Positions 5,068 to 53,000 of a stretch of 64,000 nucleotides of DNA are shown one piece after another (the stretch's first letter is position 1; each line of letters opens with the position of its first letter). The translations under genes were made by a program, and so were the position numbers. Source of the DNA: Clostridia bacterium (GTDB lineage: Bacteria; Bacillota; Clostridia; UBA1381). The notes beneath the pieces were generated by a model that was not told the origin of the DNA, did not search any database, and saw nothing but the letters and a program-made list of their open reading frames with translations. The stretch spans positions 1-64,000 of the forward strand of contig JAZQKZ010000031.1 in assembly GCA_045542415.1 (NCBI GenBank), read 5' to 3'.

Positions 5068-5080
5068 TATCTTCTTCTCC

Positions 5081-5566
5081 TTACATTAACATCAATACTG
5101 CAAATATCCCAAGAAGCACACCGCCCCGCATAAAGAGCGTGCCGTTTTTTTCATAAAACTCTGCCGCATTTTTTCTTGCCTCTCTTGCAAGTCCGCCAAC
5201 GTAGTCTATATGCCTTACCTGACCCTGTGCATCCGTTTTTCCCAGCTTTGACGATAGCAGCATAAAAATACGCCTGTCCTGCTCATTTATATCCTTATTT
5301 TCAACTGCTCTTTTCCACGCAGCCGCTATCCCCTCCGACTCGATATACCTTGCCGAGTCTGCAAAAATATCTGCTCCGCTCAGCTTCGCCGCATGCTTGA
5401 ATGCTGTTTTTAAATCAGAGCCGTTAAACGCAATTTCAGATTTCAAAATCTCAAGCGCTGTAATAAAAGCCCCCAGCAGCTCACACCTTTTTTTCATTGT
5501 ATTGCTTATATTGAAGCCGCACCACACAAACACTCCTAATATAAGCACCGCTCCCATTATTTTCAT
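5081..5566 (-). CDS. spoIIIAB: Stage III sporulation protein AB
   Basis: ORF 5081-5617. The likely start is MKIMGAVLIL at 5566, directly abutting the AA stop. ~160 aa as expected for SpoIIIAB. Confidence 0.7.
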   Translation of the reverse strand: MKIMGAVLILGVFVWCGFNISNTMKKRCELLGAFITALEILKSEIAFNGSDLKTAFKHAAKLSGADIFADSARYIESEGIAAAWKRAVENKDINEQDRRIFMLLSSKLGKTDAQGQVRHIDYVGGLAREARKNAAEFYEKNGTLFMRGGVLLGIFAVLMLM

Positions 5567-27876: not shown

Positions 27877-27906
27877 AGACGATTATAAAGATCGGAGGGG
27901 TAATAA

Positions 27907-33612: not shown

Positions 33613-34287
33613 ATGGGAAGAGTATTAACGGAAAATCAAGAATTATTGAAGGGATACTTATTGGAAGTGGGATGTAGCAAAATTGCAGTTTTGGTAATCA
33701 TTTTAGATGTTTGGGAGCCGGAAGAAACGTTAGATATGCTGCAGTTTTGCAAAGAAAATCATGGTACGGCAACAGAAAAAGATTTTGTTGCAGCGGCAAA
33801 AGAAATTTCTGTTAAGAAAGAAAAGCGAACCATTGAAGATGTTTGGAATATTGAGGACGGCTATGCTTTTTTAAGGGCCATGAATTTATACTTATCAATC
33901 AAGTGTAACTATGGTGATGAAATTAAAAATTTGAACGAGGAAGAAAAGACTTTTTTCTGTGTGCAGATTTTTGAAGAATATATACTTGATGGAAGTTTTA
34001 CAGGCTTTTTCTTTAATTCATGCGGAGATTTTGCAAACGAAATAGTTCCGGCATTGAAAAGGGTTGGGGCAATAAAAATGGCAGAAATTTGTGAAAAAGC
34101 ATTTAGCATATATGGTGATAAAGTCCCTATGGTCAGAGATGAAAGAAAAGAGATTTATAATTCAATGGGCGAAATAATGGAGAGAGTTGTTGATGAATGT
34201 CAAAATAGACTTTCGGATTGCAATAATAATCTTCCAGAATTATGTTATCAATTTATATTAAGCAACAAGGAATCTTTTTCGAAATAA
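33613..34287 (+). CDS. Hypothetical protein with C-terminal DUF4375/DMP19-like region (cassette g1)
   Basis: 224 aa. RBS AAAGAGGTG. C-terminal FFCVQIFEEYILDGSFTGFFFNSCGDF resembles the GGFxQFFxN block of DMP19/DUF4375 proteins, a family sometimes seen as immunity proteins. Confidence 0.55.
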   Translation: MGRVLTENQELLKGYLLEVGCSKIAVLVIILDVWEPEETLDMLQFCKENHGTATEKDFVAAAKEISVKKEKRTIEDVWNIEDGYAFLRAMNLYLSIKCNYGDEIKNLNEEEKTFFCVQIFEEYILDGSFTGFFFNSCGDFANEIVPALKRVGAIKMAEICEKAFSIYGDKVPMVRDERKEIYNSMGEIMERVVDECQNRLSDCNNNLPELCYQFILSNKESFSK

Positions 34288-34410
34288 ATCAGTTATTTTT
34301 TTGTATTAACTAAACACGAGTACCAAAGATTGGCGAAAGATGCCAAAAAAAGAAGCATAATATTTATGTGACATTATTATCCCTATAATCATAGATAAAG
34401 GAGTGATATT

Positions 34411-35412
34411 ATGAAATTATTTGATGATTTTGAAGCAGTTAAATTTCCCGAAGAAGATATGATTTTTATAACTGATAATGGATATCTCTATTATATTTAT
34501 AATTCTAAATATGAATATTGGAGAAAGCATCGTAATGCAGGAAACGACCATATCACAGTTAACAAATATCAAGATGTCAGCAAAGAAGAACTAATGAGTG
34601 CAATGCAAGGTATATACCCTGAAAAAGAAACTGACTTTATGAGATTGTGTAATCCTGAGCAATTATGTATTAGAGATATGTTGGATTTACTTAAAGAGGA
34701 TTATTCGAACTATATGTCAGATTACTCACTCTATCATACTGTTCATAGATTTTTATTAAAGTCTAACATATGCCATAAGTCTTTTTTAGAAACAAAAAAA
34801 CTTTTTGACAATGCCATTGCTCTTCAACAAGATAACAGGCAAGTTGTCGTTCAAATTAAAGAACTTTGTATTGCTATTATTGGTAGGGATATTTTCAAAG
34901 AAGAAATCGGCATAGTTGATGGACATGATTGTTCATCGTATTTTTGGATAATGCCGGTGAGAGTTATTGATTATTCAAATACGAATAATTGGGACAATGT
35001 TGCAGAAATGAGAAGTGCGGAGATTTCAATTGAGGAAGATGATGTTGGTCGATACCTTACGCCTTTTCTCTATAAGCACTATGATGATGAGCTTGAAGCT
35101 AATAAAAAGAGAGTTGAAGATTGTTGGATAGATAATGAAGGTAACGAGCAGATATCGGTTGTAAGCGGTTTTGAATGGTATTTGACACATAATTTCTACA
35201 CATTTAATTCTATGATGGATATTCTAAAAGATATTGGCGATACGATTGACGCTTTATCTTCGGGAAGAGAAAATGAATTTACAGTTAAACTAAAAGATAG
35301 CGAGGTTGAGCTCGTTATTGATTTTTACAATAGATTTATATACAGGATGGAATATATGATGAAAGTTGGTAAAGAAAAGGGCTATGATTTAATTTCTTTT
35401 ATGGGACCTTAA
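34411..35412 (+). CDS. Hypothetical protein (cassette g2), no recognisable domain
   Basis: 333 aa acidic, W/Y/F-rich. RBS AAAGGAG. Confidence 0.55.
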   Translation: MKLFDDFEAVKFPEEDMIFITDNGYLYYIYNSKYEYWRKHRNAGNDHITVNKYQDVSKEELMSAMQGIYPEKETDFMRLCNPEQLCIRDMLDLLKEDYSNYMSDYSLYHTVHRFLLKSNICHKSFLETKKLFDNAIALQQDNRQVVVQIKELCIAIIGRDIFKEEIGIVDGHDCSSYFWIMPVRVIDYSNTNNWDNVAEMRSAEISIEEDDVGRYLTPFLYKHYDDELEANKKRVEDCWIDNEGNEQISVVSGFEWYLTHNFYTFNSMMDILKDIGDTIDALSSGRENEFTVKLKDSEVELVIDFYNRFIYRMEYMMKVGKEKGYDLISFMGP

Positions 35413-35499
35413 AAAAGAGTTGAATCTAACCCTTATATCCCGCATAGTAAACACATCGTAAGATGTCGAAAATATTTTGAGAAAGGATGTTGAATCATA

Positions 35500-35640
35500 T
35501 CGTAATGCAATTTTAAATACTGCAAGGGTTCTCGCTCAAAACGGCGTTACGGAAAACTCCTTTTATTGTATAAAAATAAATGAAAAGGACAGGACACTTA
35601 AGCTGTCAGACAGGCAGGTAAAATATTAATAATCGGAAAA
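35500..35640 (+). pseudogene. Start-less gene remnant (..DVENILRKDVESYRNAILNTARVLAQNGVTENSFYCIKINEKDRTLKLSDRQVKY*)
   Basis: 56 sense codons bounded upstream by an in-frame TAA and lacking a start; reads like the C-terminus of a decayed gene. Confidence 0.3.
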
Positions 35641-35730
35641 GGAAGTGTTCAGAGATGTTTTGCGATGAAATAATAGAAAAAGTTTATATTATAGCTCCAG
35701 ACTATGAAGTATAATGTGAGGTGATAAATC

Positions 35731-36372
35731 TTGAACAAAACAGAGTATTTACTTGAACTTTGTCATAAACCGGAGAGTAATATAGCCGAAATAGAACAAT
35801 ATCTCAATGAAAGTGGTTTTAATCCGGAAGAAACTACTCATCTGTTATTCCGTTTCCTGGAGGAGTATGCTTATCACTTTGAATGTCCCAGACCGTTGCC
35901 GGATGACCTTATTGAACCTAAATTAATAGAAGTATTTAAGGTCTTTTCAAAATATGGATTGCAACCTAATCTGATTATTAACGAATTAAATATCATGCAG
36001 GTAATTCGTCATATTTATTATGGCAATACAGCTCCGGTTTTAGTGCGAATGTTGCTGGAGCATGGCTTAGATCCAAATCTGGAAGTTGACGGAGAAACGA
36101 TATTTGAGGAGCTTGATTTCGATATTGTGTTTGATGTTGTGGAGTTGGAAAATAAGGCTCTGTTTAATATTGAATTTAAAGTCTGGCTGGTTATGATGGG
36201 CTACGGAGGAACTATTCAGGGCGGAAGATGTCCGGTAGAACTAAAAAACGGGTATGAGATTGAGATGTTTAAGCGTTTCGAAAACTTTGACTATGAGATA
36301 GAATTTCTTAAAAAGGACTGGATAATGCACATCTTTAACAAGGAGAGCGGCGAAGAGGTTGCGATATTGTAG
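35731..36372 (+). CDS. Hypothetical protein (cassette g3), TTG start in ORF track
   Basis: 213 aa, acidic. No motif recognised. Confidence 0.45.
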   Translation: MNKTEYLLELCHKPESNIAEIEQYLNESGFNPEETTHLLFRFLEEYAYHFECPRPLPDDLIEPKLIEVFKVFSKYGLQPNLIINELNIMQVIRHIYYGNTAPVLVRMLLEHGLDPNLEVDGETIFEELDFDIVFDVVELENKALFNIEFKVWLVMMGYGGTIQGGRCPVELKNGYEIEMFKRFENFDYEIEFLKKDWIMHIFNKESGEEVAIL

Positions 36373-36492
36373 TTTGGCGAAAATATAATGCGAGGTGGCA
36401 AAACCAAAGATGAAAAAACAATAGCGATAATGATGGGGATTCAGGGTAGCGGTATAGCTACATATTTGAAGTTGCAAAGGAGTATTTATATT

Positions 36493-36969
36493 ATGGTTTA
36501 TGGAGCAATAAATAGAAAAGGCGAAAAATGCTATACACATCTGAAAAAAGTTTTTGATGCAATCGGAAATAAACAAAAAGATTATAATTGGTTAATAACA
36601 GATTGCGAATGTTATCCCAATGATAGCACGCTAAGAGAACTATTTAATAAAGAGTACTGTTTCATTTCCGGAGAAGAATTGACAGAGATTGTTTCAAAAG
36701 AAGACTTTCTATGGATTTGGGCAGTTTTGTCGGGATTTGACAAAAAGGTGTCTATAGAGCAAATCTTAAAACATGAATTGCCTTATGCAGATGGGTATGC
36801 CGGTTTTTGGAATAATCCATTATCACTCCAACACCCATTATCTTGTATAGAGATTGTTCCCTGGGATAGTTCGCTGGTTTTGCTTTTGAGCAAGGATACG
36901 GAAGTAGTTGAAAAATTTATTAAATCATTTCCATATAGTGAAAAACTGGAAGACTATAATAGTAAATGA
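36493..36969 (+). CDS. Hypothetical protein (cassette g4; paralogue of 38744-39220)
   Basis: Start MVYGAINRKGEK after RBS AAGGAG. ~90% identical to g4' at protein level. Confidence 0.6.
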   Translation: MVYGAINRKGEKCYTHLKKVFDAIGNKQKDYNWLITDCECYPNDSTLRELFNKEYCFISGEELTEIVSKEDFLWIWAVLSGFDKKVSIEQILKHELPYADGYAGFWNNPLSLQHPLSCIEIVPWDSSLVLLLSKDTEVVEKFIKSFPYSEKLEDYNSK

Positions 36970-37032
36970 TTTTTTGCCTGAATTGACACGAGCATATAAT
37001 CAGTCAAATTTATCAAAAGAGAGGAGTTGTAT

Positions 37033-37618
37033 TATGACAGCACAAATTACGGACATATATTATTATAAAACAAGACAATATAACATTGTGGCGATGAGCG
37101 ACAAACCGGATTTCCATCCAAGAAACTTGGGCTTGGATGTGTCATGTAATAACACCGCTTGTTGGAGAGGGTATTGGTGTGAATATGAAATATCAGAAGA
37201 TATCATTTTCCTGGAAAAGCTGTTTGTTAATACTGTGGACGGGAAATATCCGGATATAAACGGCATAAGAGTTAACAAAAAGTCAGATGAATATAGGGGG
37301 CACAGAGCGTATGAAGGTTTATCAATGGCTATAAATTATACAGGCAAAATACTTCTTGGCGACGAACGGATTCTCGAATATGGTATTAATGCAGGACATC
37401 CAAGTCCGTGGGAATACAAGATATTAAAGGAATTTGTTTTTGAAAAGAGTAAATTAACTAAAATTAATGATTACAGTTCAATTGCAAAAGATATAAGAGA
37501 AACAGCAGAAAACGAGCTTAGGGATGTGGATGAATTCAAACAATTTTATATTCTTGATAAAATAGCAAAAGAAAAGCTCCCTATAGAATATAATATTCAT
37601 AGAGCAAGTTGGGGATGA
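37033..37618 (+). CDS. Hypothetical protein (cassette g5; N-terminus reused in repeat copies C/D)
   Basis: Start MTAQITDIYYYK after RBS AGAGGAG. 195 aa. Confidence 0.55.
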
Positions 37619-37675
37619 TTCAGTAAACATCAAGTATGGGATAAAGTAAATCTCTAAAGAGACTTAAGGAAACAG

Positions 37676-38074
37676 TGCAAATCACTATTTACTAAAATTA
37701 TTGATAAAATAAACAAAACCTCACAAACCCAGACAAATCCTGCCCTAACAGCCCTTTCCTTAAATTACTAATTTCGGTGAAACCTTGAACAAACTCCAGG
37801 AAAAGACTATGCGTAAGGGCTGTAAGATGAAATAATAACCCTACAAAAAGGCACTGCTCGCCCAATGGACGGCAGTGCCTTTGCTTGTTTTTATTGTCGC
37901 ATATCACGGTGTCCGGTTGAAGTCAATATTTCATAAGGGTAATTTTTGCGGCAAAACACTGTGTTGAACAATACTGTACGTTATTTGGAACAGTAAGGCG
38001 AATATTGACCTAAAATAAAGATTTTCTTCGTAAGGTGTATTGAATATTATCGGAATAAATGATAGAATGATATT
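37676..38074 (+). repeat. Repeat family copy C (g5-start remnant, ~60 nt, cotJC 3' fragment, terminator and ~200 nt)
   Basis: 37715-38074 nearly identical to 33171-33531. 37676-37714 matches the 39286-39330 segment of copy D (acagtgcaaatcactattt...ttattgataaaataaac). Confidence 0.85.
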
Positions 38075-38108
38075 AACATAGCATTACGAGGATAGAAGGT
38101 GCAAAATC

Positions 38109-38318
38109 TTGGATAACGTAAAGAGAGAATTATTCAATCAAATAGAAAAGTTAAATCTTGAAGAAGACTGGGCAAGAGGCACACTCAAAGAAGCTCCGTT
38201 TTGGAGAGACGGAATGACACCGGAAGAGTATGATGAAGAAAACATATATTTGCAAAGACATTGGGACGAGTATATGAATAATACTTATGTTCCTCTTTGG
38301 AAGCAGAAGGAGCTTTGA
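38109..38318 (+). CDS. Hypothetical small acidic protein (cassette g6, 69 aa)
   Basis: ORF with RBS-like GGATAGAAGGTG upstream. Confidence 0.4.
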   Translation: MDNVKRELFNQIEKLNLEEDWARGTLKEAPFWRDGMTPEEYDEENIYLQRHWDEYMNNTYVPLWKQKEL

Positions 38319-38319
38319 T

Positions 38320-38685
38320 ATGGTTACATTTAAATTAGTAGAAGAAAACAGTCATAGTCTTATTTATCATTATTTCCCTAATGGAGAAGAAAACAGTGAA
38401 TCTGGCGTTATAGTCGTAGATAAAGAAAAAAATCAAATATATGTAAAAGACTTATCGCCAAAGGATTTTATGAGAATAGAAACTATAGCAGAGCAAAATG
38501 AAATGAGAGATTCCGTGAATGAGATGCGAAAAATAGAAGGACTGGGTGAACTTAGCGAGGAAGAATGGCCGATTGCCACAGAAGATATTGTCATTAGATT
38601 TTTTGCGGATCATGCCATGAATAAAATTTGGAATGCATATGTCAAGGGTGAAGTTTTGCAAAGCGGTACAGTGATGTGGTATTAG
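38320..38685 (+). CDS. Hypothetical protein (cassette g7, 121 aa)
   Basis: Start MVTFKLVEEN after RBS AGAAGGAG. ORF track extends to 38287. Confidence 0.5.
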   Translation: MVTFKLVEENSHSLIYHYFPNGEENSESGVIVVDKEKNQIYVKDLSPKDFMRIETIAEQNEMRDSVNEMRKIEGLGELSEEEWPIATEDIVIRFFADHAMNKIWNAYVKGEVLQSGTVMWY

Positions 38686-38743
38686 CAAATTTGCGAAGAA
38701 TATTCAGATATTACACAAGCGAGATTTTGAAAGGGGCAGTATC

Positions 38744-39220
38744 ATGGTTTATGGAGCAATTAATAAAAAAGGTGAAAAATACTATACGCATCTGAAAAAA
38801 GTTTTTGATGCAATTGGAAATAAACAAAAAGATTATAATTGGTTAATAACAGATTGCGAATGTTGTCCCAATGATAGCACTTTAAGAGAACTATTTGATA
38901 AAGAGTACTGTTTCATTTCCGGAGAAGAATTGACGGATATTGTTTCAAAAGAAGACTTCCAATGGATTTGGGCAGTTTTATCCGGGTTTGACAAAAAGGT
39001 ATCTATAGAGCAAATCTTGAAACATGAATTACCTTATGCAAATGGATATACCGGATTTTGGAATAATCCATTATCGCTGCAACACCCATTATCTTGTATA
39101 GAGATTGTTCCTTGGGATAGTTCGCTGGTTTTGCTTTTGAGCGAGGATAAGGAAGTAGTTGAAAAATTTATTAAATCATTTCCGCATAGTGAAAAACTGG
39201 AAGACTATAATAGCAAATGA
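38744..39220 (+). CDS. Hypothetical protein (cassette g4'; paralogue of 36493-36969)
   Basis: 158 aa, near-identical to g4. Confidence 0.6.
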   Translation: MVYGAINKKGEKYYTHLKKVFDAIGNKQKDYNWLITDCECCPNDSTLRELFDKEYCFISGEELTDIVSKEDFQWIWAVLSGFDKKVSIEQILKHELPYANGYTGFWNNPLSLQHPLSCIEIVPWDSSLVLLLSEDKEVVEKFIKSFPHSEKLEDYNSK

Positions 39221-39495: not shown

Positions 39496-39653
39496 TTTTT
39501 CCGTTTCTTATAACGTAAAACTGTTAGGTTGATATAAACTATTGATGCCAAATAGTTTGGAATGTGAACAAATATATGTTGAAAAATCTTTTCTGGTATA
39601 GTATAATAAAAACAATAAAGAATTCCATTTTGATTTCAGGGAGGGATAATAAA

Positions 39654-42600
39654 ATGAATAAAAAGCTGATTTCGCTGGCATTGTCATTATCAATGCTTGG
39701 CATGTCAATCCCGTATTTTACAACAGCACAGGCCGCCGAACCTATTATAGCATTTCCGGGCGCAGAGGGTGCAGGTAAATATGCAACCGGCGGACGAGGC
39801 GGTACAGTGTATCATGTAACAAATCTTAACGACAGCGGTACAGGGTCTTTTCGTGACGCTGTTTCGAGAGGTAACAGGATTGTCGTATTTGATGTAGGCG
39901 GAACAATTGAGTTGAAATCAGACGTAAGCGTAGCCGGCAATATCACCATTGCCGGACAGACGGCACCCGGTGGAGGCGGTATAACGCTTCGTGGCGGCAA
40001 AATCGGTATGGCGGGCGATAATATTATTATCCGATTCATAAGCTCTCGTCCGGGTGAAAACGGGAGCAGTGAATGTGACGCATGGGGCGGAAGCAAGGGC
40101 TCGAACTCCATGATAGACCACTGCTCAATCGGTTGGGCAAATGACGAACAGTTTGGTCTGTATTCGGCAACACAGCAGACAATACAATATTCGCTCATAG
40201 GACCTGCAAACTGTATTTCATACCATTCAAAGGGCGCACATGGCTTTGGTGTTATGATGGGAGCAGGACACAACACATGGCATCATAATATGATTGCACA
40301 TAATATTTCACGAAATTACCGTGGTAAGGTTTCGGGAACAAATACTTTAGACTATGTAAATAACGTAATCTTTAACTGGGGCTATCAGACAGCGTACGGT
40401 ACCTTCGGACATGTAAACTATGTCGGAAATTATTTTAAGAAAGGACTCTCTACAAACGGAGGATACAGATACATAAGCATAAGCAGCGGTACTGCTCCGG
40501 AAAAATACAGATTCTATCTTACAGGCAACAAGATGGTTAATGCAGATGGCACAGACCACAACTCCGCCATGAACAGCGATAACTGGCAGGGTGTGGACTA
40601 TGGAAGTGCCGGATACACACAGTCGCATTACCAGATAACTTCACCGGTCAGAGTAAATGATGTCAACGGCAATGACGCATCGGTAGTTGCAAATGCACAG
40701 ACAGCGGATGAAGCCTTTGAAACAGTACTTGCATATGCAGGTGCCGGAATCCGTGCGGATCTACGTCCTGAAATTGACCGCCAGGTAATGGATGAAGCTC
40801 GCACAGGTAACGGTTATCTCACCGGAGGACGTGACTTCTCAACCCTCACCTCAAGCGATACAGCATTGAATGAAGCTATCGAGAAATATAATATCAAAGA
40901 AATGAATTATGACGAGTATTATCCGATACCGATTACTCAAAAAGAGATAATTGATTCAGATAATGACGGAATGAGCGACGACTGGGAATTAGCAAGGGGC
41001 TTAGACCCCTACACCAACGACGCAACACTTGATTATCTGGGACAGGGATATAACAACATTGAGTATTACATAAATGACCTTACGGTTGATTCGTTCCCGG
41101 AGGGTGTTGTAACGCTTTCTCCTGAAACGGTTGATTTGGGTGAAGATTTCGAGAAAGCAAAGGCAGATGCAGATGCAATTACTATTTCAACCACATTTGT
41201 TAAGACACCGGAAGATTTAATACTGCCCACACAGTCTGCCAACGGCTCTGTAATCACCTGGAGCAGTACATCAAGCGAGATTATCATAGAAAATAATCAG
41301 ATTGTGTCAGTTAATCGCCCATCATCAGTAAGTGCTGTAGTAACTTTAAGTGCCGGTATTACATACGGCGAATATACCCTAAAACGTGCTTTTTCAATAA
41401 CAGTTCCACCACTTCCGTATAAATTCGATTTTGGCAACGGAAGCGTCCAAAGCGGATTTACAGCTGTAAGTGCATCAACAACATATTCACCTGAGACGGG
41501 ATATGGTTTTGTCGGCACAGCACCAAGTGATATGGTACGCGCACCGGAAAATATCCCATCAGGATATGAAAACATGCATGAGGATCAGATTTTTGGCGAA
41601 ACACAATTCAAGGCGGAAATACCAAACGGAAAATATATAGTAGTCATTCATTACGGAAGCTGGAATACGAACTTTGGAACAAATTATACGGTAGAGGGTA
41701 TAAATTCAGGTAATCTTTCCGCCACAGCCGCGACAGAATATGTCACAGCTGTAGAGATAACGGACGGAATACTTGATTTAACTATTGCCAAGGGTTCAAA
41801 CTCATACGGAGGATATATAAACGGCCTGGAAATCCTGCCACCACCTGACCCGCAGTATCACTTTGACTTTGGCGATGGCACGATACAGGATGGATATGTC
41901 GGAGTCAGTGCTTCAACTGTATATTCACCTGCTACATGCTACGGCTTTGCAGATGCAGCGGCACAAACCTCAATGGAACGTGCTCCGGCGAATATTCCTT
42001 CAGGATATGAAAATCTGCACGCTGACCAGATAAGCGGAATAACATCCTTTAAATCAGATCTCCCGAACGGAAAATATATTGTAACCATTCATTATGGCAG
42101 CTGGAACACCGGCTTTGGCACAAGCTACAATATAGAGGGTGTAGAATCGGGCAATCTCGCATCAACCGATGCCGCACAGTATATCGCAAAGGTAGAAGTA
42201 ACGGACGGAATGCTCGATGTAGCAATAAATACGGGAGGCAACAAGTACGGAGGATATATAAACGGCATAGATATTATGCCTTTGCCTACACTCCCCTATC
42301 ATTTCGATTTCGGTGACGGAGCTGTTCAGACAGATTATTTTTCAGTAACCTCATCAACCATATACTCATCAGATACGGAATTTGGATTTGTAGATTCAGC
42401 CGTGCAGGAGGGAATGGCTCGTGCACCCGGTAATATTGCATCGGGATTCGAGGATTTATATAATGACCAGATACTTGGTGAAACGCAATTCAAAGCAGAT
42501 ATACCGAACGGAAAATATGACGTCATTATTCATTACGGAAGTTGGAACACAGGATTTGGAGTAAATTATACAATAGAGGGTGTATCCTCGGGCAATCTTA

Positions 42601-43043
42601 CATCAACCGACGCCACACAATATCGCACCACAGTAGATGTGACAGATGAGATGCTTGATGTAAGTATTGGAAAGGGATCAAAGCAATACGGAGGCTATAT
42701 CAGCGGTATGGATGTAATTCCGATAGAATCAACTCCCGAACCGACTCCGACACCGATACCGACAATTGCACCCACTACAGCTCCGACTGCTCCCCCGGTA
42801 CCTGTGCCGATAACGTATTCGGATAATGCTGTAACGGTAACGTTGAGCAAGGTAAATCAGGCAATACTGATACATTCTGTATATGAATCAGGAAAACTGA
42901 TTTCGGTTGAAATAATTCCTCTGGAATTCGAGAACGGAACAGCAACTGTACTAAAAGCAGATATTAATATCGGCGACAAGCTTATGGTGTGGGATAATAT
43001 AAATGATATGAAGCCTTTAAGCAAACCATATGTAAAACATTGA
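39654..43043 (+). CDS. Secreted pectate-lyase-like beta-helix enzyme with three tandem ~145-aa modules, PT linker and C-terminal domain
   Basis: Start MNKKLISL after RBS GGGAGGGA. Signal peptide. N-terminal AFPGAEGAGKYATGGRGGTVYHVTNLNDSGTGSFRDAV pectate-lyase-type opening. Module repeated 3 times (FDFG(N/D)G.VQ.G(F/Y)..VS.ST.YS...GYGF...HYGSWNT.FG..Y..EG..SGNL). Confidence 0.75.
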   Translation: MNKKLISLALSLSMLGMSIPYFTTAQAAEPIIAFPGAEGAGKYATGGRGGTVYHVTNLNDSGTGSFRDAVSRGNRIVVFDVGGTIELKSDVSVAGNITIAGQTAPGGGGITLRGGKIGMAGDNIIIRFISSRPGENGSSECDAWGGSKGSNSMIDHCSIGWANDEQFGLYSATQQTIQYSLIGPANCISYHSKGAHGFGVMMGAGHNTWHHNMIAHNISRNYRGKVSGTNTLDYVNNVIFNWGYQTAYGTFGHVNYVGNYFKKGLSTNGGYRYISISSGTAPEKYRFYLTGNKMVNADGTDHNSAMNSDNWQGVDYGSAGYTQSHYQITSPVRVNDVNGNDASVVANAQTADEAFETVLAYAGAGIRADLRPEIDRQVMDEARTGNGYLTGGRDFSTLTSSDTALNEAIEKYNIKEMNYDEYYPIPITQKEIIDSDNDGMSDDWELARGLDPYTNDATLDYLGQGYNNIEYYINDLTVDSFPEGVVTLSPETVDLGEDFEKAKADADAITISTTFVKTPEDLILPTQSANGSVITWSSTSSEIIIENNQIVSVNRPSSVSAVVTLSAGITYGEYTLKRAFSITVPPLPYKFDFGNGSVQSGFTAVSASTTYSPETGYGFVGTAPSDMVRAPENIPSGYENMHEDQIFGETQFKAEIPNGKYIVVIHYGSWNTNFGTNYTVEGINSGNLSATAATEYVTAVEITDGILDLTIAKGSNSYGGYINGLEILPPPDPQYHFDFGDGTIQDGYVGVSASTVYSPATCYGFADAAAQTSMERAPANIPSGYENLHADQISGITSFKSDLPNGKYIVTIHYGSWNTGFGTSYNIEGVESGNLASTDAAQYIAKVEVTDGMLDVAINTGGNKYGGYINGIDIMPLPTLPYHFDFGDGAVQTDYFSVTSSTIYSSDTEFGFVDSAVQEGMARAPGNIASGFEDLYNDQILGETQFKADIPNGKYDVIIHYGSWNTGFGVNYTIEGVSSGNLTSTDATQYRTTVDVTDEMLDVSIGKGSKQYGGYISGMDVIPIESTPEPTPTPIPTIAPTTAPTAPPVPVPITYSDNAVTVTLSKVNQAILIHSVYESGKLISVEIIPLEFENGTATVLKADINIGDKLMVWDNINDMKPLSKPYVKH

Positions 43044-43056
43044 TGAAAAACACATT

Positions 43057-43152
43057 CTAAAAGGCGAATTTCGCGGGTATGTCCCCGATTTTGTGTAAGA
43101 CTTCACCACAACCGCCTTTCAATATTTCACAATCAATTGTGATTTTGAGCAT
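43057..43152 (-). pseudogene. Truncated copy of the Mu-F-like gene (MLKITIDCEILKGG then divergent, 31 aa)
   Basis: First 14 codons identical to those of 44028-44480, including the TCACAATCAATTGTGA palindrome. Confidence 0.5.
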
Positions 43153-43221
43153 GATAAAAGCACGTTCAGCGGCGACTTTGTCGTCTGCATTAGTAACGTG
43201 CTTTAAATCCTTTATTTAGTT

Positions 43222-43413
43222 TTATAAAATCAATTTTACCGTTTCACACATATAATCACCACATTCGTCACATTTGAATTGATGGCATTTTTTTAAATCC
43301 TCATACCCACTTCCAACCGGTCTGTAGAAGCCTTTTTCACAATTCGAGCATCTAACTTCTTCGCTAGCATGTAACTTTTTAAAGTTCTTAATTATATCCA
43401 TATAAATCCCCAT
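43222..43413 (-). CDS. Small CxxC...CxxC zinc-ribbon protein (paralogue of 44507-44671)
   Basis: 63 aa, likely start MDIIKNF at 43401. Motif VRCSNCEKGFYR...KCDECGDYM. Confidence 0.5.
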   Translation of the reverse strand: MGIYMDIIKNFKKLHASEEVRCSNCEKGFYRPVGSGYEDLKKCHQFKCDECGDYMCETVKLIL

Positions 43414-43554
43414 TTCTTAGATGCGAATATTCCTTGCTTACATGATTTATAATCTCTTTTATATCTTCTTCTGTTGCATTACTTTTTTATGCATAAGCTC
43501 CGCCAAATAACAATTTATTTCATTTCCAGCGAACCTCTCCAAGTAAAACGTGCT

Positions 43555-43794
43555 TTAAAAATATTCATCTAAATCAATGTCTGATTTAATGTATATTGCT
43601 CCTATAAGAAAATCATTATATACTTTTATCCTATCATTGTCTCTCCTGTATTCCTGAATACAGGAGCCATCTACATCTTCTAAAAGAGACTCTTTTATCA
43701 ATCCGGGTATTCTATTCTCCAATACCTCACACTGTTTATAAAATATTTCCTCGTCTGCTTGATTGCATATATTATATTCTTTCATATAACTCAC
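43555..43794 (-). CDS. Hypothetical 79-aa acidic protein
   Basis: ORF ending at a copy of the ACGTGCTTTAA motif. Confidence 0.4.
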   Translation of the reverse strand: MSYMKEYNICNQADEEIFYKQCEVLENRIPGLIKESLLEDVDGSCIQEYRRDNDRIKVYNDFLIGAIYIKSDIDLDEYF

Positions 43795-43799
43795 TCCAA

Positions 43800-44027
43800 A
43801 CCGTATTTTTTGTTTACTTCTTTATTTGTTTTTGGTGCTGTGGCTAATATATCTTCAATGGCGTCATCTCTTGTCATAAATTTTCTTTTCATTTTATCTT
43901 CAATCAATTCTTAAAAAGATTTATTAGGTCTTTTATCATCTAGTCTCTTGCATTCTTTTTGGTCTTTCATCAAATCTCTGCGCGTTCGTCCTGTACTCAC
44001 AAGCCCCGACATATCTTTAAAATCCAT
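43800..44027 (-). pseudogene. Frameshifted gene remnant (MDFKDMSGLVSTGRTRRDLMKDQKECKRLDDKRPNKSF* / ..ELIEDKMKRKFMTRDDAIEDILATAPKTNKEVNKKYGLE*)
   Basis: Two adjacent reading frames on the minus strand separated by a frameshift near 43915. Both read as sensible protein segments. Confidence 0.35.
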
Positions 44028-44480
44028 TTAATTTAAGCGACTTTGCTTTTGCTTTTTCAGCTCCGCCCACTTTGCACTATCATTATACTTCAATTCTTGG
44101 AACTTGTCAATGCTTCGTGGTACGTCCTTTCCAAATATAGCTCTGTATTTTTCGTGCTGTGCCTTATCAGCGTCATTATTTCTATACTTCCGTCCGGTCA
44201 CCTCAAAAGCCGCCTTTTCCTCCGGGTTCATACCGTCCCGCCACTGTTCATATGTAACCGAACCGTCAATCATATCATCATGCCCCGTCCCCGGATTCCT
44301 CGCACGTTTCACACGTCCTCTCGTCAAGCGTAGCCATGTATTTGTAGTATTTTCATTATACCCCTTTAAATCGCCCCCGGAACGTGCGTGAGCAATTTCT
44401 GTGCGTATCAGCGTAGTTGCTCTTGACTCTGTCACATCACCGCCTTTCAATATTTCACAATCAATTGTGATTTTGAGCAT
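44028..44480 (-). CDS. Stand-alone phage Mu-F / SPP1 gp7-like (head-morphogenesis-type) domain protein
   Basis: 150 aa. LIRTEIAHARSGG and ARNPGTGHDDMIDGSVTYEQW match the Mu-F-domain pattern (aRTE...R..H...DG....W). Confidence 0.55.
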   Translation of the reverse strand: MLKITIDCEILKGGDVTESRATTLIRTEIAHARSGGDLKGYNENTTNTWLRLTRGRVKRARNPGTGHDDMIDGSVTYEQWRDGMNPEEKAAFEVTGRKYRNNDADKAQHEKYRAIFGKDVPRSIDKFQELKYNDSAKWAELKKQKQSRLN

Positions 44481-44506
44481 GATAAAAGCACGTTACAAAA
44501 CGTGCT
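44481..44506. repeat. Perfect 10-bp inverted repeat hairpin AAAGCACGTT-ACAA-AACGTGCTTT
   Basis: Read directly. Half-sites recur at 43150-43159 / 43194-43203 (split by 34 nt), 43547-43557 and 44751-44761. Confidence 0.7.
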
Positions 44507-44671
44507 TTAATCTATATTCATTTTTGCTTTGCAATAATCACATTCAAAATAATGGCTTATTTTATAATCATATGGAGTCCTCCAAAAACCTTTATTACAG
44601 AGGTCGCACTTTACTTCTTCGCCATTTCTTAATTTCTCCAGTTCGTTTAAAAACTTTTCTCCATAATTCAT
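44507..44671 (-). CDS. Small CxxC...CxxC zinc-ribbon protein
   Basis: Start MNYGEKFLNE after RBS GGAGGAAG. VKCDLCNKGFWR...ECDYCKAKM. Confidence 0.55.
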   Translation of the reverse strand: MNYGEKFLNELEKLRNGEEVKCDLCNKGFWRTPYDYKISHYFECDYCKAKMNID

Positions 44672-44809
44672 ACTACTTCCTCCATGAATATTCAGGATAT
44701 AATGAACTGTACCATTTTGTGCGGACAGCACAAAATGGTGCAGTTCAAACGTGCTTTAAATCCTTTATTTAGCTTCAATATATAATTTGTCAAAAGGTGC
44801 GTTTCGTTC

Positions 44810-44989
44810 CTACCAAAACGTACCTCCTTCTTTGGGTTTATAATCAATTCCATTGTTGCACTCTTTCAGTTCCTCCAAATCTTTAAATGCATGGTCATAC
44901 CGAACACCGTCAGGAAACGCATCGCATACAAAAATTCCATTTTTCAACCCTCTGCAATTAGCACAATTATCACAATAACTAAACTTCAT
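44810..44989 (-). CDS. Small Cys-rich protein (59 aa, CDNCANC...C...C)
   Basis: Below the ORF-track cutoff. ATG preceded by GGGAGGTG. Translation MKFSYCDNCANCRGLKNGIFVCDAFPDGVRYDHAFKDLEELKECNNGIDYKPKEGGTFW. Confidence 0.4.
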   Translation of the reverse strand: MKFSYCDNCANCRGLKNGIFVCDAFPDGVRYDHAFKDLEELKECNNGIDYKPKEGGTFW

Positions 44990-45222
44990 CGTTTTTCACC
45001 TCCCATATATTTATTGAAAAAACCCATTGCTTTTTTAGGAATTTTATTTATCTCTTTTCGCTCCAATAATACTCCGATTTCTGCAATACATTCAGCCCCA
45101 TCATCACTCGCTATTTGACTTACATTTGGGATTCTTATATTTTAATTCGCCATACAGCTTCCCTGTATTAGCTTCACATAACCATATTCATGTATTACAG
45201 AAAATTCGTCTCAATCGATTCC

Positions 45223-47054: not shown

Positions 47055-50000
47055 ATGAAAGCAAAAAAGCTAATCAGTGCATTGACAGCGGCAGCAATTT
47101 CTTTATCAACTATTACTCCGCTTGCAATGACAGCATCAGCTGAGGATGCAGTTTATACCTGCGATTTTACTCAGCTCATCAAAAACGGTGCAGATACCAC
47201 CTACGGTACATCAACTGATATTTATCAGCTTGATGACTACACCACCGCATATCTTACATATGAGGGTACATATGTAACAGCTGCGGGAGAAGTATATTTA
47301 AAAAGTAACACTGTAACAAATGGAGCAGGCAGGTATGCAAAGGGCAGTTATATTGCGTTTACTGCACCATCCTACGGTACTGTAACGATTAAGGGTAAGG
47401 ACATCGGTTTTTGTTTTAACGATGACGGTTCGGAAACCTATATGGGATACGGCCCAAGCATGACCTTTGACGTAACGGCAGGCGACATTGTTTATACCGG
47501 CTACAGAAAGACTTCAACCTATGTTTCATCAATTACTTTTGAGGCACTTCCGGAACCGACAGCAGCTCCGACAGCAGACCCAAACGCCACTCTTCCGCCG
47601 TCGTTTAACGAGCCGGACAGAGAGGTGCTGTATTCAGAGAACTTTGAGGGTTATGAAGACGGAGCAACGGGCGGCTGGACTTCACCGGCAGGAACGATGA
47701 AGATAAAGACAGACACCGAAAGCTTAATAAGCAAGTATCAGACAGTTGTATCCGGCAAAAGCGGCACCTGCCGTTCAGGATATGTTGAAATCCCGGCTAT
47801 AACGGATAATTTCGTATTTGAATGTGATTTCAAGTCAACCTCAAACGTAAATGTATCAGACCTTGAGCTTCTTGAAACGAAGTCATCGGTATATGCGAAT
47901 CACGGAAGATACTCTAATGCAAAGTATGCTTTCACAATGGCAAGACCTCAAGGTTCAAATCTTTATGTTTTAAATAATGCCTTGGACGACAGCGGAATGA
48001 CACTTAACCGCTATGAGGCACCAATCGTTACAACTCCGGAAATTGCAGACAATCCGTGGCTTCATGTAAAGGTTGTAGGTAACTACGACACACACACTGC
48101 AATAGTTTACATAATGTCACTTGACAGAGAAACAACATACTATCACGGTATGCTTGATATGTCACCGGACATCAGCTCATGGAAGTGTATCCACCTCCTT
48201 TCACCGTCAACCGGTGCTGATACCTGTATTGACAACATAAAGGTATCAAAGGCACTCGATGAGGACTTGGCAGAGGTATTCCATACAGTAAAAATCAATA
48301 ACGGTATTTCTGAATTTTCGCAGTATGTTGCAGACGGCAAGTCACCGGTGAATATCCCGGACATGTCACTTTACGGCAGCTATTTCCTTGGTTGGAATGT
48401 GAACGGAACACTCCTTTCATCAACACAGCTTGCTTCATATGCAGTTACTGCCGACACAACAATCACTGCTCAGATTTCACCGGACTATATCGAAAATATA
48501 GCAAAAGTCGAGTTCAACTCATTCCCGGCAAATTCAATGCTTGTCATGGGACCTGATGGCGATACATATGCAGATAACAATATTTCTCTTACAATTACCG
48601 GCGAAAGAGGTACAAGCCTTGTTTCAAATCCGGATTCAAGAGTTAGTGACTATACAATAGACTGGAAATTTGACGGTTTCCGTACAATGAACGGTATAGC
48701 AACAGGTGAGACAGGCTCATCATACTGCGACAGCTACGGAAGTGTTACAATCGACAGCGCAAACCAGAGCAACGTCAATTTCAGATTGAAGAATACATCA
48801 GCAAATTACTACGGTTTAGTAACTGCTACTGTTACATATAACGGAAAGACTGTCACTGTTTCAAAACCGTTGGTACTCCTTGCAGATACAAACGTTGACA
48901 CATCGCAGATTTTACCGAGAGCTGGTTATAGTGCGGATTACAGCAAGTATGACGATACGCTCGTTGGATACTCAATCAAAAATAACGACATATTGACGGG
49001 CGGCTGGTCAATGGACGGTTCAGACGCTACATATGTAACACTCCGGGAAGAAAATGGAGGCAAGTATCTTGCTTTATCAAGAGCATTAAGCGGTAATTCA
49101 TCATATGTATATCAGAACATAGGAAACATTACCTCACAGACAGTATTCTCACAGGATGTACGCTTCAATATGCCGGCTAATATAGAATACGGTACCGGAA
49201 AGGCAGTAACCTCCTTTACGTCAACTGCATTTAACCTGGCATTTAGCGGTTCAGCATTTACACTCAATACTACACAAATTTGTGAGGCTTCGGCAGGTAC
49301 ATGGTATCATATTGAGATAGTAGCAGATCCGACATCAAAGCTTTGCATGGCAAAGATATATGAATACCGTGCAGACGGTGACTACAGCAGTGCTGTGCCG
49401 ATTGGCGCAACTGATGTGTCAGCATTCACGGACGGATATACATCAGGTTCATATTACAGAATAGCATTAACCAAAAACAGTGGTACTATTGATATAAATA
49501 ATGTAGAAATCACTGCACCCTCCGTTACCTCAGCAACTGTAAACGCTCCTGAGACATTAACAATTTCAGAAACAGCACAGGTAACTGCAGATTTATCGTT
49601 AAATGCACTTATGGCAGACGGTTCGGTAGCTCTGGGTGTTGCTTCATGGGAAATTGCCGATGAATTTGCAACAGGTGTAAGTATAGCTTCATCAGGCAAT
49701 CAGAGTGCAGTATTAACTGTTGATTCTACAGCTTCATCAGGCGAATTACCGATTAATGTTACAATTAACGGATATAAGACAACTCATACAATAAAGCTTT
49801 TAGGTACAAAGGACAACGTTGCATTTGTAAAGGCACCTACCGGTGCGGCAATTCCGACAGAGGGAAATGCTGTATATACATACGTTGCACAGGTAATTGA
49901 CGGAAGCGCTGAAATGGTTGTCGGCAGAACAATTACATATACATTACTTAATGCAGACGGTAGTACATTAAGTGATTCGGACATTTCAATTGCATCAGAC

Positions 50001-53000
50001 GGTACATTAACTGTAGCATCATCAGCTTCACCGCAGGAAATTCTCGTTAAGGCAATATCAACAGATACAAGCGGCAATGAGATTTCAAAATCAGTTAAGG
50101 TAAGCCTTTACGGAAACAAGTTCAGCTTCGGTTCAACCTACACAAGCGGCTATACACAGGTAAATGCAGCTGATACATATTCAGATAACAGAGGCTTCGG
50201 TACAGTTGGTTCAGCTGTTGATAACAATGGATATATCAGCGGTAGCGGTGCAGGCTTTAAGGTAAAGCTTGAGGCAGGTAATGTATATTCGGTAAAGACT
50301 TCATACGAGGGTACACTCCGATGTGAATATATCAACTCCGATCTCCCCGGCTTTGAGAAAACAAAGGCTTCTCTGGGCGAAGACACATATAACGTTGCAG
50401 TGTTCGGAGACGGAATAATGGATATTACATTATCAGGCGACGGCAAAATAGCATCACTTGAATTTGAAAAGCTTGAAAGAAGCTCAAACACAAAGCCGGC
50501 ATGGTTTACAATCGGTGACTCAACAGTTCAGCAAAACGGAAGCTGGGCATACACCATTGCAAGTGATTCAACCTCGGACCTTTCAGCATACCCGGCACTT
50601 GCCGAGACTGTAAGTACATTCTATAACAGCGGACGTGCCGGCAGACAACACCGTTCATACTACACAGAGGGCTTATTCAATAATGTACTCACACGCTTAA
50701 AGCCGGGTGATGTCGTTTCAATAAGCGGTATGGGCACAAACGATTCAAGCTCTTCAAAGGAAACCTTTAAGAATTACAACAATATCTACATAGACGCAAT
50801 TGAAGCTATGGGCGGATATGTGATTTTAGGAAGCTACACACCGACAGGTAACTACGGTTCAACTGAGGGCAAGGTATATGACGCAGACAACATTCTCTTT
50901 AAGGGAATGAGAACAAACTCATATGATGCTGCAATCCGTGAGGTATATGAAGAGCGTGTAGCAGCAGGCGATGACAAGGTTATCGGCTTTATTGATATCG
51001 GTAAGATAAGTGATAATCTTATGACAAATGACGTAAGAGCAGAATATAACGCAGCAGCGGCTGACGGCAAGTCAATCGTTGAAGCACGTTCAGCGGCAAA
51101 TAATAAGGCAGATGAAATGATGGCATGGTGGAAAGACTATAACCACTATTACACCTCGTTCTCAAGCTACATTTTACCTGAAATAACAAACCGTGCGGCA
51201 CAACTTATAAGCGGTCAGGAGCAGGATGCATTACCTGAGATAATTGAACTTGCAGAAATCGACCCGGCAATCACTCCGGCGCCGACAGCAACTCCCGAAC
51301 CCACTGCCACACCTGCTCCCACAGCAACCCCTACCCCCTCTCCTGCTCCGCTTGACGGCACAGGTGTTGAGGTAGTGTCATCAGAAGAATATGTTGATGT
51401 TTCATCACTTGTTATGTATAATAACAACACATACCGAATGTATGCTGCCGATGGTACATACACAAGCGTAAGCGCAACTAACGGCAAGGTTCATAACACA
51501 ACAGGCGGCGAGGTTATTATTGTACCGGAATACAAGTTTGAATTTACAAATACAACAGCTTCAACAGACCCGTATATCAGCGGTTATGTGAAAGTAGGTG
51601 CAAATTCATATACACAAACAAAGGGCTACGGCTTAACAAGCAGCGGCTCAATCAACGAAAACGGATGCAGACCTGAATCCGGTTCGCCGATTAAGGTTGA
51701 CGTTCCGAAAGGCTACTACGACATAACCGTTTACCGCAAGGGCGGTGCACGCGCAGACGTATATGCCGAAGGTACTCAGATTATTCAGAATACTACCTCG
51801 GCGAGTCCTCAGAACCGAAATGCCGGCAGCGCACTGATGTATGCTCCCGGAATAATGATCGAAAGCGGATGCGTAGATATTACAATCGGCAACACAAGCG
51901 GCTCAAACGAAAGAGTTGCATCTGTTTCAATCGTAAGAGTACCGGAGAAATTAAGAAAGCCGGTAATCTGGGTTGCAGGTGACTCAGAGTCAGCTAACTA
52001 CTATGCAATTGATGCAAACGGTAGTGACTTAGACAGCGAAAAGATAATGATTACAGGCTTCGGTACACAGCTTGACAAGTACCTTTCAAACAAGTACAGC
52101 ATAGCAAATTTCGGTCAGCCGAGTGCTACGGCAGGCACATGGAACAACGAAAGCCTTGAATCAGTTACAAAGCAGATGATACCGGGAGATACGATCCTTA
52201 TCTGCTTCGGTATCAATGACGCAGTTTCATCATCAAATAAGGTTGATATTGAAACTGCAAAGGCAAATATCAAGAAGATTGTTGACGCAGCACTTTCAAA
52301 GGGTGCAAAGCCGATACTTTTAAGCCCGGTTTATAACAGCAAATATCAGGGCAAGTCATACTTTACATACTCAAACAATACAAATGTACTCGGCGAGTAT
52401 GCAAAAGAAATTGGTGTTGACTTTATTGACATCAACCGTTTCTCAATGAAGTATGTAAATGATTCAATCATTGCAACAGAGGATTCAAGTTGGCTTTCAC
52501 ACAACTATCACGTTGCAGATAATCTCCACCTCACACAGCACTCAGCTATGCTTATCGCATCAATTATTGCGGCAGGCATGGAGGATATCGGCTACGAGGT
52601 TAAGGATTATGCTTATACATACGCTGATATTGCCGAAGTAGGTGAAGGCAACGTAAGAGGCACTGAAACAGGAGTAACAAGAGTTTACAGTGTGGATGAA
52701 GCACATAAGCTTATGGAGCTTGCCCTTGCAACTCCTGAGCCGGAAAGTAATGTTTTAGCATCATATACAGCTCCGTCAACAACATGGACATTTAACGCCG
52801 CACAGCCGGCAACAGCCGGAAATAACGTTCCGGTAGTATCAGGCGGTGCAACATGGAACGAAGCAAGCGGAACAGTTAAGTTTGATGCTTCATCAAAGAC
52901 CACAGGCAAGCTCACGGTAACGCTTGACCCGAAGATCAAGAACAATGTAACAGTCGAGTTTGATGCATACATGACCGCTTTAGGACAGCAGTACTTTGCA

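Follow-up and report, generated by a model that had tools for sequence, protein, structure and literature searches.

A chromosomal patch related to phage MuF polymorphic toxin-immunity modules in a Clostridia bacterium

Four cassettes between def and a lyase-like gene

We report on a run of small open reading frames (ORFs) in a 64-kb stretch of DNA from contig JAZQKZ010000031.1 of a Clostridia bacterium (64,000 nucleotides, nt; hereafter the window). The run lies on the minus strand, as do all features below unless stated otherwise, between def (45645-45223) and the stop (43043) of a convergent gene for a lyase-like protein of 1159 amino acids (aa). Judged by homology, 45102-43088 (~2.0 kb; the patch) is phage-derived DNA; its counterpart in a siphophage lineage is the stretch that separates the gene for the MuF minor head protein from the scaffold gene, with a top identity of 97% to the contig L004. 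By the same comparisons it consists of four cassettes, each with a dead 3' piece of a MuF polymorphic-toxin gene, an intact small gene and a phage terminator arm. We are highly confident of the identity and origin of the patch as a relic of a siphophage MuF segment, and the best explanation of the locus overall, which we consider likely, is that it represents a relic of the segment "MuF toxin - immunity gene - terminator" of this lineage.

The source lineage, with L004, L047, L129, L130 and L132 as relatives, is known from metagenome contigs alone and appears only in Logan and ENA assemblies. The gene order in L004 is terS, terL, an SPP1-type portal gene, the MuF gene, a 59-aa ORF and a DUF4355 scaffold gene, and its DNA matches the patch at 97.2% over 355 nt, 94.9% over 78 nt and 93.8% over 81 nt, and at 94% and 77% over two MuF segments. 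In an intact phage module a minor head protein (Phage_Mu_F or Phage_min_cap2) carries a variable C-terminal toxin-type domain and is followed by a small cognate gene, the conserved terminator hairpin AAAGCACGTT...AACGTGCTTT, a conserved intergenic element and the scaffold gene. Every piece of the patch is, by alignment, homologous to a part of such modules, and the small genes have their counterparts behind MuF-type proteins in phages, directly behind full-length toxins in L004, L047, L040-45, L003 and L006/7. Judged by their reading frames, every toxin piece is inactivated and all four small genes are intact. All proteins of the window are singletons at 90% identity except the product of the first small gene, ORF A.

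The repeats, inverted repeats and paralogous zinc-ribbon genes listed in a first-pass annotation of the window are present. Specifically, the decamer AAAGCACGTT (AAGCACGTT with a preceding A) or its complement occurs seven times in the 64 kb against 0.12 expected, a count reached in 0 of 100 shuffles, and six of the seven copies lie within 43157-44757. An exact direct repeat of 56 nt (100% identity; 43111-43166 and 44439-44494) holds the right hairpin arm, an ATG, the first 14 codons of the two ORFs starting MLKITIDCEILKGG and the palindrome TCACAAT-N2-ATTGTGA, and a second repeat (43186-43235 and 44739-44788; 78% identity) contains the left arm.

Cassette 1 begins with the 3' stub of a toxin gene (44990-45102), recognized by its match to L004 and its translation as 38 codons of the MuF C-terminal domain "A" that end in AECIAEIGVLLERKEINKIPKKAMGFFNKYMGGEKR and a stop. 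Behind it ORF A (44810-44989) encodes an intact Cys-rich protein of 59 aa, a candidate immunity protein, which differs in one residue from P0006; the gene for the latter lies directly behind, and overlaps, the gene for the 553-aa MuF protein of L004, ahead of the scaffold gene. The 355-nt match (45102-44748 against L004 5868-6222) covers the end of this Phage_Mu_F protein and the next gene, and among its ten mismatches seven fall in the 113 nt of the toxin stub and two in the 180 nt of ORF A. No match to ORF A was found in Pfam or PHROG. The phage sequence 3' of ORF A (44748-44788; repeat D2) ends in the left terminator arm AAAGCACGTT (44757-44748) with the right arm gone; this tail is colinear with L004 up to 6222, and the homology breaks off in the hairpin loop.

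At the junction of cassettes 1 and 2, exactly between this arm and the toxin stub of 9 codons that precedes the zinc-ribbon gene Z1, sits an inverted repeat, I1 (44703-44747), with 20-bp arms that are 95% complementary and a predicted RNA fold of -32 kcal/mol (z = -7.6). I1, which like the promoter discussed below goes beyond the first-pass annotation, is single-copy in the window and absent from 48 fetched loci; it may be a fold-back junction or repair scar, or a foreign terminator. Rfam searches of the patch and of L004 gave only sub-threshold miRNA models, on the I1 palindrome.

Cassettes 2 and 4 each pair the remnant of an HExxH-type toxin with a zinc-ribbon gene. In cassette 2 the remnant (44673-44702) comprises, by translation, the last nine codons, LYPEYSWRK, and a stop, and can be aligned with the C-terminus (...YPEYKWRR/K) of P0011, of the L040 minor capsid protein and of an orphan fragment in L129. 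Z1 (44507-44671) encodes an intact 54-aa zinc ribbon, a candidate immunity protein for the HExxH C-terminal domain. Its homologue P0009 (72% identity over 81% of Z1 in local BLASTP, 62% over the full MAFFT alignment) is encoded directly 3' of a 550-aa Phage_min_cap2 protein in six phage contigs (L040-45), and Z1 is 44% identical to a 55-aa ORF behind the 493-aa MuF protein P0011 in L047. In cassette 4 the 3' stub (43402-43540), translated as GEVRWK-stop-NKLLFGGAYA-stop-KSNATEEDIKEIINHVSKEYSHLRNGDLY, has ~46 codons with two stops and begins just past the position of the HExxH motif when aligned to the C-terminal domains of P0011, L040 and L129. It is followed by Z2 (43222-43401), an intact 59-aa zinc ribbon and, by homology, a paralogue of Z1 (42% identity, CxxC...CDxxC invariant). 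Over ~187 nt across Z2 the window is 80.7% identical to the metagenome contig L046, in which the homologue overlaps the end of the upstream ORF; dN/dS between the two is 0.12.

The HExxH domains (IIHExxH) of two carriers, one a Phage_Mu_F and the other a Phage_min_cap2 protein, share 42% identity, and a zinc-ribbon homologue follows either carrier; therefore the domain and the zinc ribbon travel together across carrier families. The order in L047, that is MuF gene with the HExxH domain, zinc ribbon, hairpin and intergenic element, is that of the Z1 cassette, with closely similar sequence. Moreover, L129 holds an orphan cassette (4728-5214) of a 107-aa truncated HExxH toxin fragment and a 60-aa zinc ribbon, standing behind its primary MuF immunity gene and ahead of its scaffold gene; in front of the cassette is a remnant similar to the "DGSVTYEQW" region of MuF. 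The zinc ribbons had been paired with the Mu-F ORF downstream of them, a pairing contradicted by the phages, in which they follow HExxH C-terminal domains, and by the HExxH stubs upstream of Z1 and Z2. Their Pfam matches are sub-threshold zinc-finger noise, and the best Pfam match of the HExxH domain, also sub-threshold, is DUF6782, a putative metallopeptidase family (E 6.6e-4). On these associations the zinc ribbons would neutralize the metallopeptidase-like HExxH domain.

Cassette 3 holds, according to tblastn, a MuF polymorphic-toxin pseudogene (43794-44438) that runs from MuF residue ~227 to the end of the C-terminal domain "B". It was previously taken as three ORFs, one of 150 aa and two of 38 aa, and the first of these as a stand-alone Mu-F protein with a frameshifted remnant behind it. 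The pseudogene aligns in one frame to P0002 (E 3e-45) and to residues 224-528 of the 528-aa MuF protein P0015 (E 2e-61). The alignment with P0002 extends from 44309 to 43794 in a single reading frame, through two in-frame TAA codons (after ...SRLN and ...NKSF) and a gap of ~40 codons, a deletion in the toxin domain; therefore the 150-aa ORF and both 38-aa ORFs are parts of one pseudogene. The supposed remnant is not frameshifted, since a single frame, broken by two TAA codons, spans 44480-43794. The 150-aa ORF covers a piece, from the middle towards the C-terminus, of a larger minor-head toxin gene which relatives have in intact form, the outcome that the first-pass annotation itself had named as a refutation. 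At the DNA level 44439-44309 is 77% identical to the L004 MuF gene at 5003-5143, and 44307-44201 is 94% identical at 5267-5373; a deletion has removed the 123 nt for the MuF-domain core CxxC...HPRCRC, and 44352-44302 does not keep the MuF frame. The RTE...AHAR stretch is all that remains of the MuF domain in the window. Consistent with this, the 150-aa ORF matches PHROG families of minor head proteins in their middle regions and has no match in Pfam, and thus none to Pfam MuF; a word-indexed search with it returned itself and P0002 only.

P0002 matches minor head proteins over its N-terminal half, and over its C-terminal half the C-termini of a "polymorphic toxin protein" of an M. abscessus prophage and of "Rhs" ORFs of a C. 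tetani phage. A full HMMER scan with domain B (the C-terminal 125 residues of P0002) identified 829 cluster representatives, in proteins of 104-910 aa that invariably have the domain at their extreme C-terminus; Phage_Mu_F or Phage_min_cap2 is present in nine of ten carriers sampled. Similarly, 66 relatives in the L004 MuF family have the N-terminal ~65% in common and differ in their C-termini, Ntox50 among them. By this distribution domain B behaves like a polymorphic-toxin domain. Its match to DUF7587, a domain of unknown function, is below the curated cut-off (E 0.0043), and a comparison with solved structures gave no related structure.

The second part of cassette 3 is an intact 76-aa ORF (43555-43785), by its homologues a candidate immunity gene for domain B. 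Its product is 46% identical (E 2e-22) to that of an 83-aa ORF directly behind P0002 in L006/L007, and 39% identical (E 3e-16) to that of an 83-aa ORF directly behind the 513-aa Phage_min_cap2 toxin of L003, which ends in the same C-terminal domain. By gene order in these phages the partner of the MuF fragment is the downstream 76-aa gene and not the upstream zinc ribbon; the ORF behind the M. abscessus toxin is not homologous to the 76-aa ORF. We suggest that the 76-aa protein would neutralize domain B, and the Cys-rich 59-aa protein the L004-type domain. In all, three candidate toxin/immunity pairs emerge: HExxH domain and zinc ribbon, domain B and 76-83-aa protein, and L004-type domain and Cys-rich 59-aa protein. 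The first two are backed by co-occurrence on both Phage_Mu_F and Phage_min_cap2, and the third by a single phage lineage.

The terminator-like hairpin and the assembly of the array

A complete hairpin, AAAGCACGTT-ttgt-AACGTGCTTT (44485-44508; repeat I8, folded), lies at the end of cassette 2. Its right arm opens the phage intergenic element D1b (44433-44494), which continues with the small hairpin TCACAAT-N2-ATTGTGA and GAAAGGCGGTGATGTG and is 94.9% identical to L004 6211-6288. At the end of cassette 3 there is a left arm alone (43547-43556; repeat D3); it overlaps the stop codon of the 76-aa ORF and its right arm is gone, the junction of cassettes 3 and 4 lying in the loop. The patch closes with a long-loop hairpin (43157-43204; repeat I22), the arms of which (43204-43195 and 43166-43157) are 28 nt apart, and with D1a plus ~24 nt of further phage intergenic DNA (43088-43166; 93.8% identical to L004 6227-6307), D1a having a 2-nt deletion relative to the phages. 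The first-pass annotation had ascribed the wide spacing to an insertion of 34 nt; compared with 4 nt in the first copy, the 28 nt are a long-loop form, and L004 has their counterpart, by alignment, in a long two-tier hairpin (658-713) upstream of terS. Single half-sites had also been said to end two small genes, which holds for the one that overlaps the 76-aa stop; the other, 44748-44757, begins only 53 nt after the stop codon of that Cys-rich ORF.

In L004 and L047 the same hairpin stands behind the immunity gene, and divergent versions do so in L129 and L132. The arrangement 3' of the immunity gene in L004 and L047 is TTAAAGCACGTT-loop-AACGTGCTTTTTT, then CATGCTCAAAATCACAAT..ATTGTGAAATATTGAAAGGCGGTGATGTGGTGAAGTCTTACAC, then ~130 nt and the scaffold gene; L132, L129 and L130 keep the hairpin and parts of the downstream element. 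L132 and L129 have no ATG in the element, and nowhere is the ATG preceded by a Shine-Dalgarno sequence. Together with the intergenic homology this means that the gene start MLKITIDCEILKGG is spurious; there is no second Mu-F gene truncated to 31 aa, and the ORF taken for it (43152-43057) lies in intergenic phage DNA of the kind that separates the terminator of the immunity gene from the scaffold gene.

Ten pairs (4 G-C) make up the stem of the hairpin, which has a loop of 4 nt and a tail that reads TTTTTT in L004 and L047 and TTTTAT in the window; a terminator scan calls it on the plus strand only. Of five copies folded against shuffled sequences three were significant (z -2.9, -2.9 and -5.7), and the folds of window copy a (z -1.8; 10 of 200 shuffles as good) and of the copy behind the L004 immunity gene (z -2.2; 5 of 200) were weaker. 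The hairpin looks like an intrinsic terminator, and by its position the phage's own; other phages have unrelated terminators at the same position. Among the functions proposed for it in the first-pass annotation, termination agrees with our data and a dedicated processing or recombination site does not, even though two cassette junctions fall in its loop. A scan of IMG/VR for AAAGCACGTT-N(2-32)-AACGTGCTTT, which had been proposed as a check, gave 32 loci, all of them unrelated terminators without the downstream element, and thus the bare decamer pair is not diagnostic. Exact scans for the intergenic element in viral, genome and metagenome collections found nothing.

L004 holds the hairpin and the small-palindrome element twice, at 658-741 before terS and at 6213-6300 before the scaffold gene, and a copy is at 2483-2560 in L047. 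The two L004 copies differ in both arms of the palindrome, which read CACAAT/ATTGTG before the scaffold gene and CGCAAT/ATTGCG before terS. An ORF of 24 codons, MLKITI[VD]CEILKGGDVV[KR]SYTKYT and a stop, is kept in L004 and L047, without a ribosome-binding site. That the element encodes a 24-aa peptide is unlikely, given the lack of a Shine-Dalgarno sequence, the loss of the ATG in L132 and L129 and a frameshift in window copy a.

The borders of the cassettes suggest how the array was put together. Cassette 2, with its full hairpin and intergenic element, is joined to the MuF pseudogene at GATGTG, a hexamer common to the intergenic element (L004 ~6283) and MuF codon ~227 (L004 ~5003). The junctions of cassettes 1/2 and 3/4 lie after the left terminator arm, in the 4-nt loop, and cassette 4 ends with the long hairpin and intergenic element. 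The array would thus have arisen by illegitimate recombination, with one junction at the 6-nt GATGTG microhomology and two in the terminator loop, and the same process would create orphan cassettes inside phages such as L129. Because L129 has an orphan unit, we take it that such arrays form inside phages of this siphophage lineage.

Possible present-day role and alternative explanations

A sigma-70-type promoter, TTGACA-17-TATAAT (44082-44110; promoter scan), matches the consensus in 12 of 12 positions. Located within the pseudogene and 297 nt upstream of the gene for the 76-aa protein, it is encoded by the conserved linker IDKFQELKYN; such linkers (xDKFQELKYN) stand just upstream of the variable toxin domain and the immunity gene. 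The hexamers are 12/12 in five other phage versions (L048, L129, L130/131, L132/133) and 11/12 in a sixth (L006/7), at ~1822 in L048, ~3941 in L129, ~5141 in L130, ~1798 in L132 and ~265 in L006, and they are kept despite synonymous differences in the spacer. The combination GAC+TAT+AAT is expected from codon usage alone in ~20% of cases, and the sequences compared are related to one another. Hence, the data are suggestive only of the linker as an internal promoter for the immunity gene, and a conserved linker ahead of a variable toxin domain may hold such a promoter in general.

None of the four small genes has lost its start codon, its Shine-Dalgarno sequence (ribosome-binding site) or its stop codon, and the internal cassettes 1 and 3 are without the terminator arm that would block read-through. 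Two transcription units would be possible, each running to a complete hairpin: read-through from def would serve ORF A and Z1, and the promoter in the dead toxin gene would serve the 76-aa gene and Z2. As candidate immunity genes on an orphan islet, the small genes would shield the cell from MuF toxins of related phages or lysogens. A present-day immunity function of the patch, as opposed to neutral debris, is in our view a tentative proposal.

Neutral recent debris and an immunity islet are equally plausible. According to the former, which we regard as possible without leaning towards it, the patch has the same phage origin, nothing in it is expressed or useful, and the small ORFs are open because they are short and recent. 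Cassette 1 is recent because it is 97% identical to phage DNA, the T-run of the window terminator is weakened (TTTTAT compared with TTTTTT in the phages) and the patch is found in no relative's def locus, all of which fits debris; against this have to be set the 12/12 consensus promoter that faces the 76-aa gene and the loss, from the internal cassettes, of exactly the arm that would block read-through. Also in favour of debris, four disruptions in 687 nt of toxin sequence versus none in 744 nt of small genes have a chance probability of p ~0.05; against it, the four small genes keep start, Shine-Dalgarno and stop while every toxin piece is broken, and the mismatches to L004 amount to 7/113 nt in the toxin stub versus 2/180 nt in ORF A.

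Other points weigh against the patch as a relic of toxin-immunity modules that still provides immunity. We infer the toxicity of the three C-terminal domains and its neutralization by the small proteins from homology and gene order, and for every one of these domains a significant match in Pfam is lacking. That the small genes are intact is a weak sign of selection, as the genes are short and cassette 1 is recent. Domain B may have a structural role, given how common it is on phage head proteins, and the gene behind the P0015-type toxin is unrelated to the 76-aa ORF, so the pairing of domain B with this immunity gene is not universal. Furthermore, no portal, terminase, integrase or other phage gene, and no further homology to phages, is present elsewhere in the 64-kb window, where the neighbours are ordinary chromosomal genes, and the patch is absent from the def loci of all relatives (80 loci from metagenome-assembled genomes, MAGs, of Clostridia, Acutalibacteraceae and Oscillospiraceae); the def genes of these relatives are at most 88% identical and the region 3' of def is not conserved in synteny.

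A defence islet retained by the host in a non-lysogen, combined with a linker promoter that expresses the immunity gene independently of the phage late operon, is unlikely on present evidence. If true, the linker promoter would explain how a lysogen is immune while its head genes are silent, and from the islet one could conclude indirectly that cells in nature are really reached, and harmed, by MuF toxins.

An array of cassettes assembled site-specifically, after the manner of integrons or of recombinase-associated immunity arrays, in which a recombinase would act at the hairpin on mobile cassettes bounded by AAAGCACGTT, appears very improbable. All four cassettes end in TTAAAGCACGTT and two junctions are exactly in the hairpin loop; however, the third junction (D1b/MuF) is plain 6-nt microhomology elsewhere, no recombinase was detected among the scanned window ORFs near the patch, and the motif, a plain perfect stem of 10 bp with a 4-nt loop, misfits the attC pattern R''(RYYYAAC)...R'(GTTRRRY). 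The motif is explained as the left arm of the phage terminator behind the immunity gene in L004, L047, L129 and L132, and the 32 inverted-repeat matches in IMG/VR are unrelated terminators.

We give hardly any credence to a functional tandem two-gene system of a zinc ribbon and a stand-alone Mu-F protein, toxin/antitoxin-like and with the hairpin as processing or recombination site: the order zinc ribbon, hairpin and 14 identical codons is indeed found twice and the 150-aa ORF matches minor-head PHROGs, but the shared codons are phage intergenic DNA with no Shine-Dalgarno sequence and with the ATG gone in L132 and L129, the 150-aa ORF is without the MuF core, partly off the MuF frame, interrupted by two stops within the pseudogene and without a Pfam MuF match, and in the phages the scaffold gene rather than the MuF gene comes 3' of the hairpin and the zinc ribbon follows the HExxH domain. 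A false lead is thereby removed, there being neither a new zinc-ribbon/Mu-F two-gene system nor a special recombination hairpin at this locus. The first-pass suggestions of a prophage relic and of a toxin-domain/immunity pair were right in spirit and wrong in anatomy and pairing.

With respect to the surroundings of the patch, the neighbours at 39564-43043, 47055-55142 and 23148-33003 are very large secreted carbohydrate-active proteins, namely the 1159-aa lyase-like protein with galactose-binding-like repeats, a 2695-aa multi-esterase, and alpha-galactosidase and CBM35 proteins with SLH partners. The nearest def homologues come from gut MAGs of uncultured Clostridia, Acutalibacteraceae and Oscillospiraceae, and a gut relative of Clostridium that degrades fibre or pectin is the probable host. 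On the plus strand, 33613-39220 contains mid-sized genes, including those for a DMP19-like protein (33613-34287) and DUF2691 proteins (36388-36969 and 38744-39220), together with ORFs without family matches. Immediately ahead of the lyase-like gene, this region may hold another group of immunity-type genes.

Comparison with known systems

MuF polymorphic toxins are an established family with a small downstream immunity ORF (Jamet et al. 2017, BMC Biol 15:75, PMC5576092). PF04233 and PF06152 are both counted as MuF, a small downstream ORF is found for 89% of MuF toxins and a metallopeptidase domain in 20% (PMC5576092). For Apk2/IapK of an S. pneumoniae prophage (Apk2/IapK/Aph1) toxicity and immunity have been shown experimentally (PMC12226406). 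The phage relatives of the patch agree with this family in that the carrier is Phage_Mu_F (MuF1) or Phage_min_cap2 (MuF2) and adjoins portal and terminase genes. They also have C-terminal extensions of 100 aa or more that vary, among them a class of metallopeptidase type and a domain shared with other polymorphic-toxin families, and an ORF of less than 150 aa immediately 3', just as each small gene in the window stands behind a toxin stub. The patch differs in that the window has no intact carrier, portal, terminase or prophage, in that four cassettes are stacked, and in that its three C-terminal domains and its small proteins match no curated family. The N-terminal MuF domain, which is present in L004, L047, L048, L129, L130 and L132 (PF04233) and in L003 and L040 (PF06152), is missing in the window, the location in a packaging/head module that all related phage contigs have is absent for the patch, and domain B is present but disrupted.

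The hairpin shares with intrinsic terminators a 10-bp stem, a 4-nt loop, flanking A- and T-runs, its place after the last gene of the module and, in three of the five copies folded, an energy significantly below that of shuffled sequences. Unlike these, it is kept in sequence across phages whose MuF proteins are only ~60% identical, it occurs in a short-loop and a long two-tier form, and a second small hairpin and GAAAGGCGGTGA invariably come after it. Judged by this conservation, it is part of a larger conserved intergenic element.

With orphan C-terminal toxin/immunity arrays (those of CdiA, Rhs and type VI and type VII secretion systems) and with orphan immunity islets the patch has in common the tandem, inactivated, 5'-truncated toxin fragments, each with an intact gene in the immunity position, and one of its cassettes keeps part of a conserved pre-toxin region. 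In contrast to these arrays, its parent is a phage structural protein and not a secretion-system effector, no full-length MuF toxin gene precedes it, there being none in the window (such an order is found in L129), and the cassette boundaries coincide with the loop of a terminator hairpin. Orphan cassettes are not mentioned in PMC5576092 or PMC12226406, and the present data document MuF orphan toxin/immunity cassettes within a phage (L129) as well as in a chromosome, there as a patch by itself. The patch is not an intact member of the MuF family; it derives from MuF polymorphic toxin-immunity modules and is organized like the orphan arrays of contact-dependent growth inhibition (CDI) as well as of Rhs systems.

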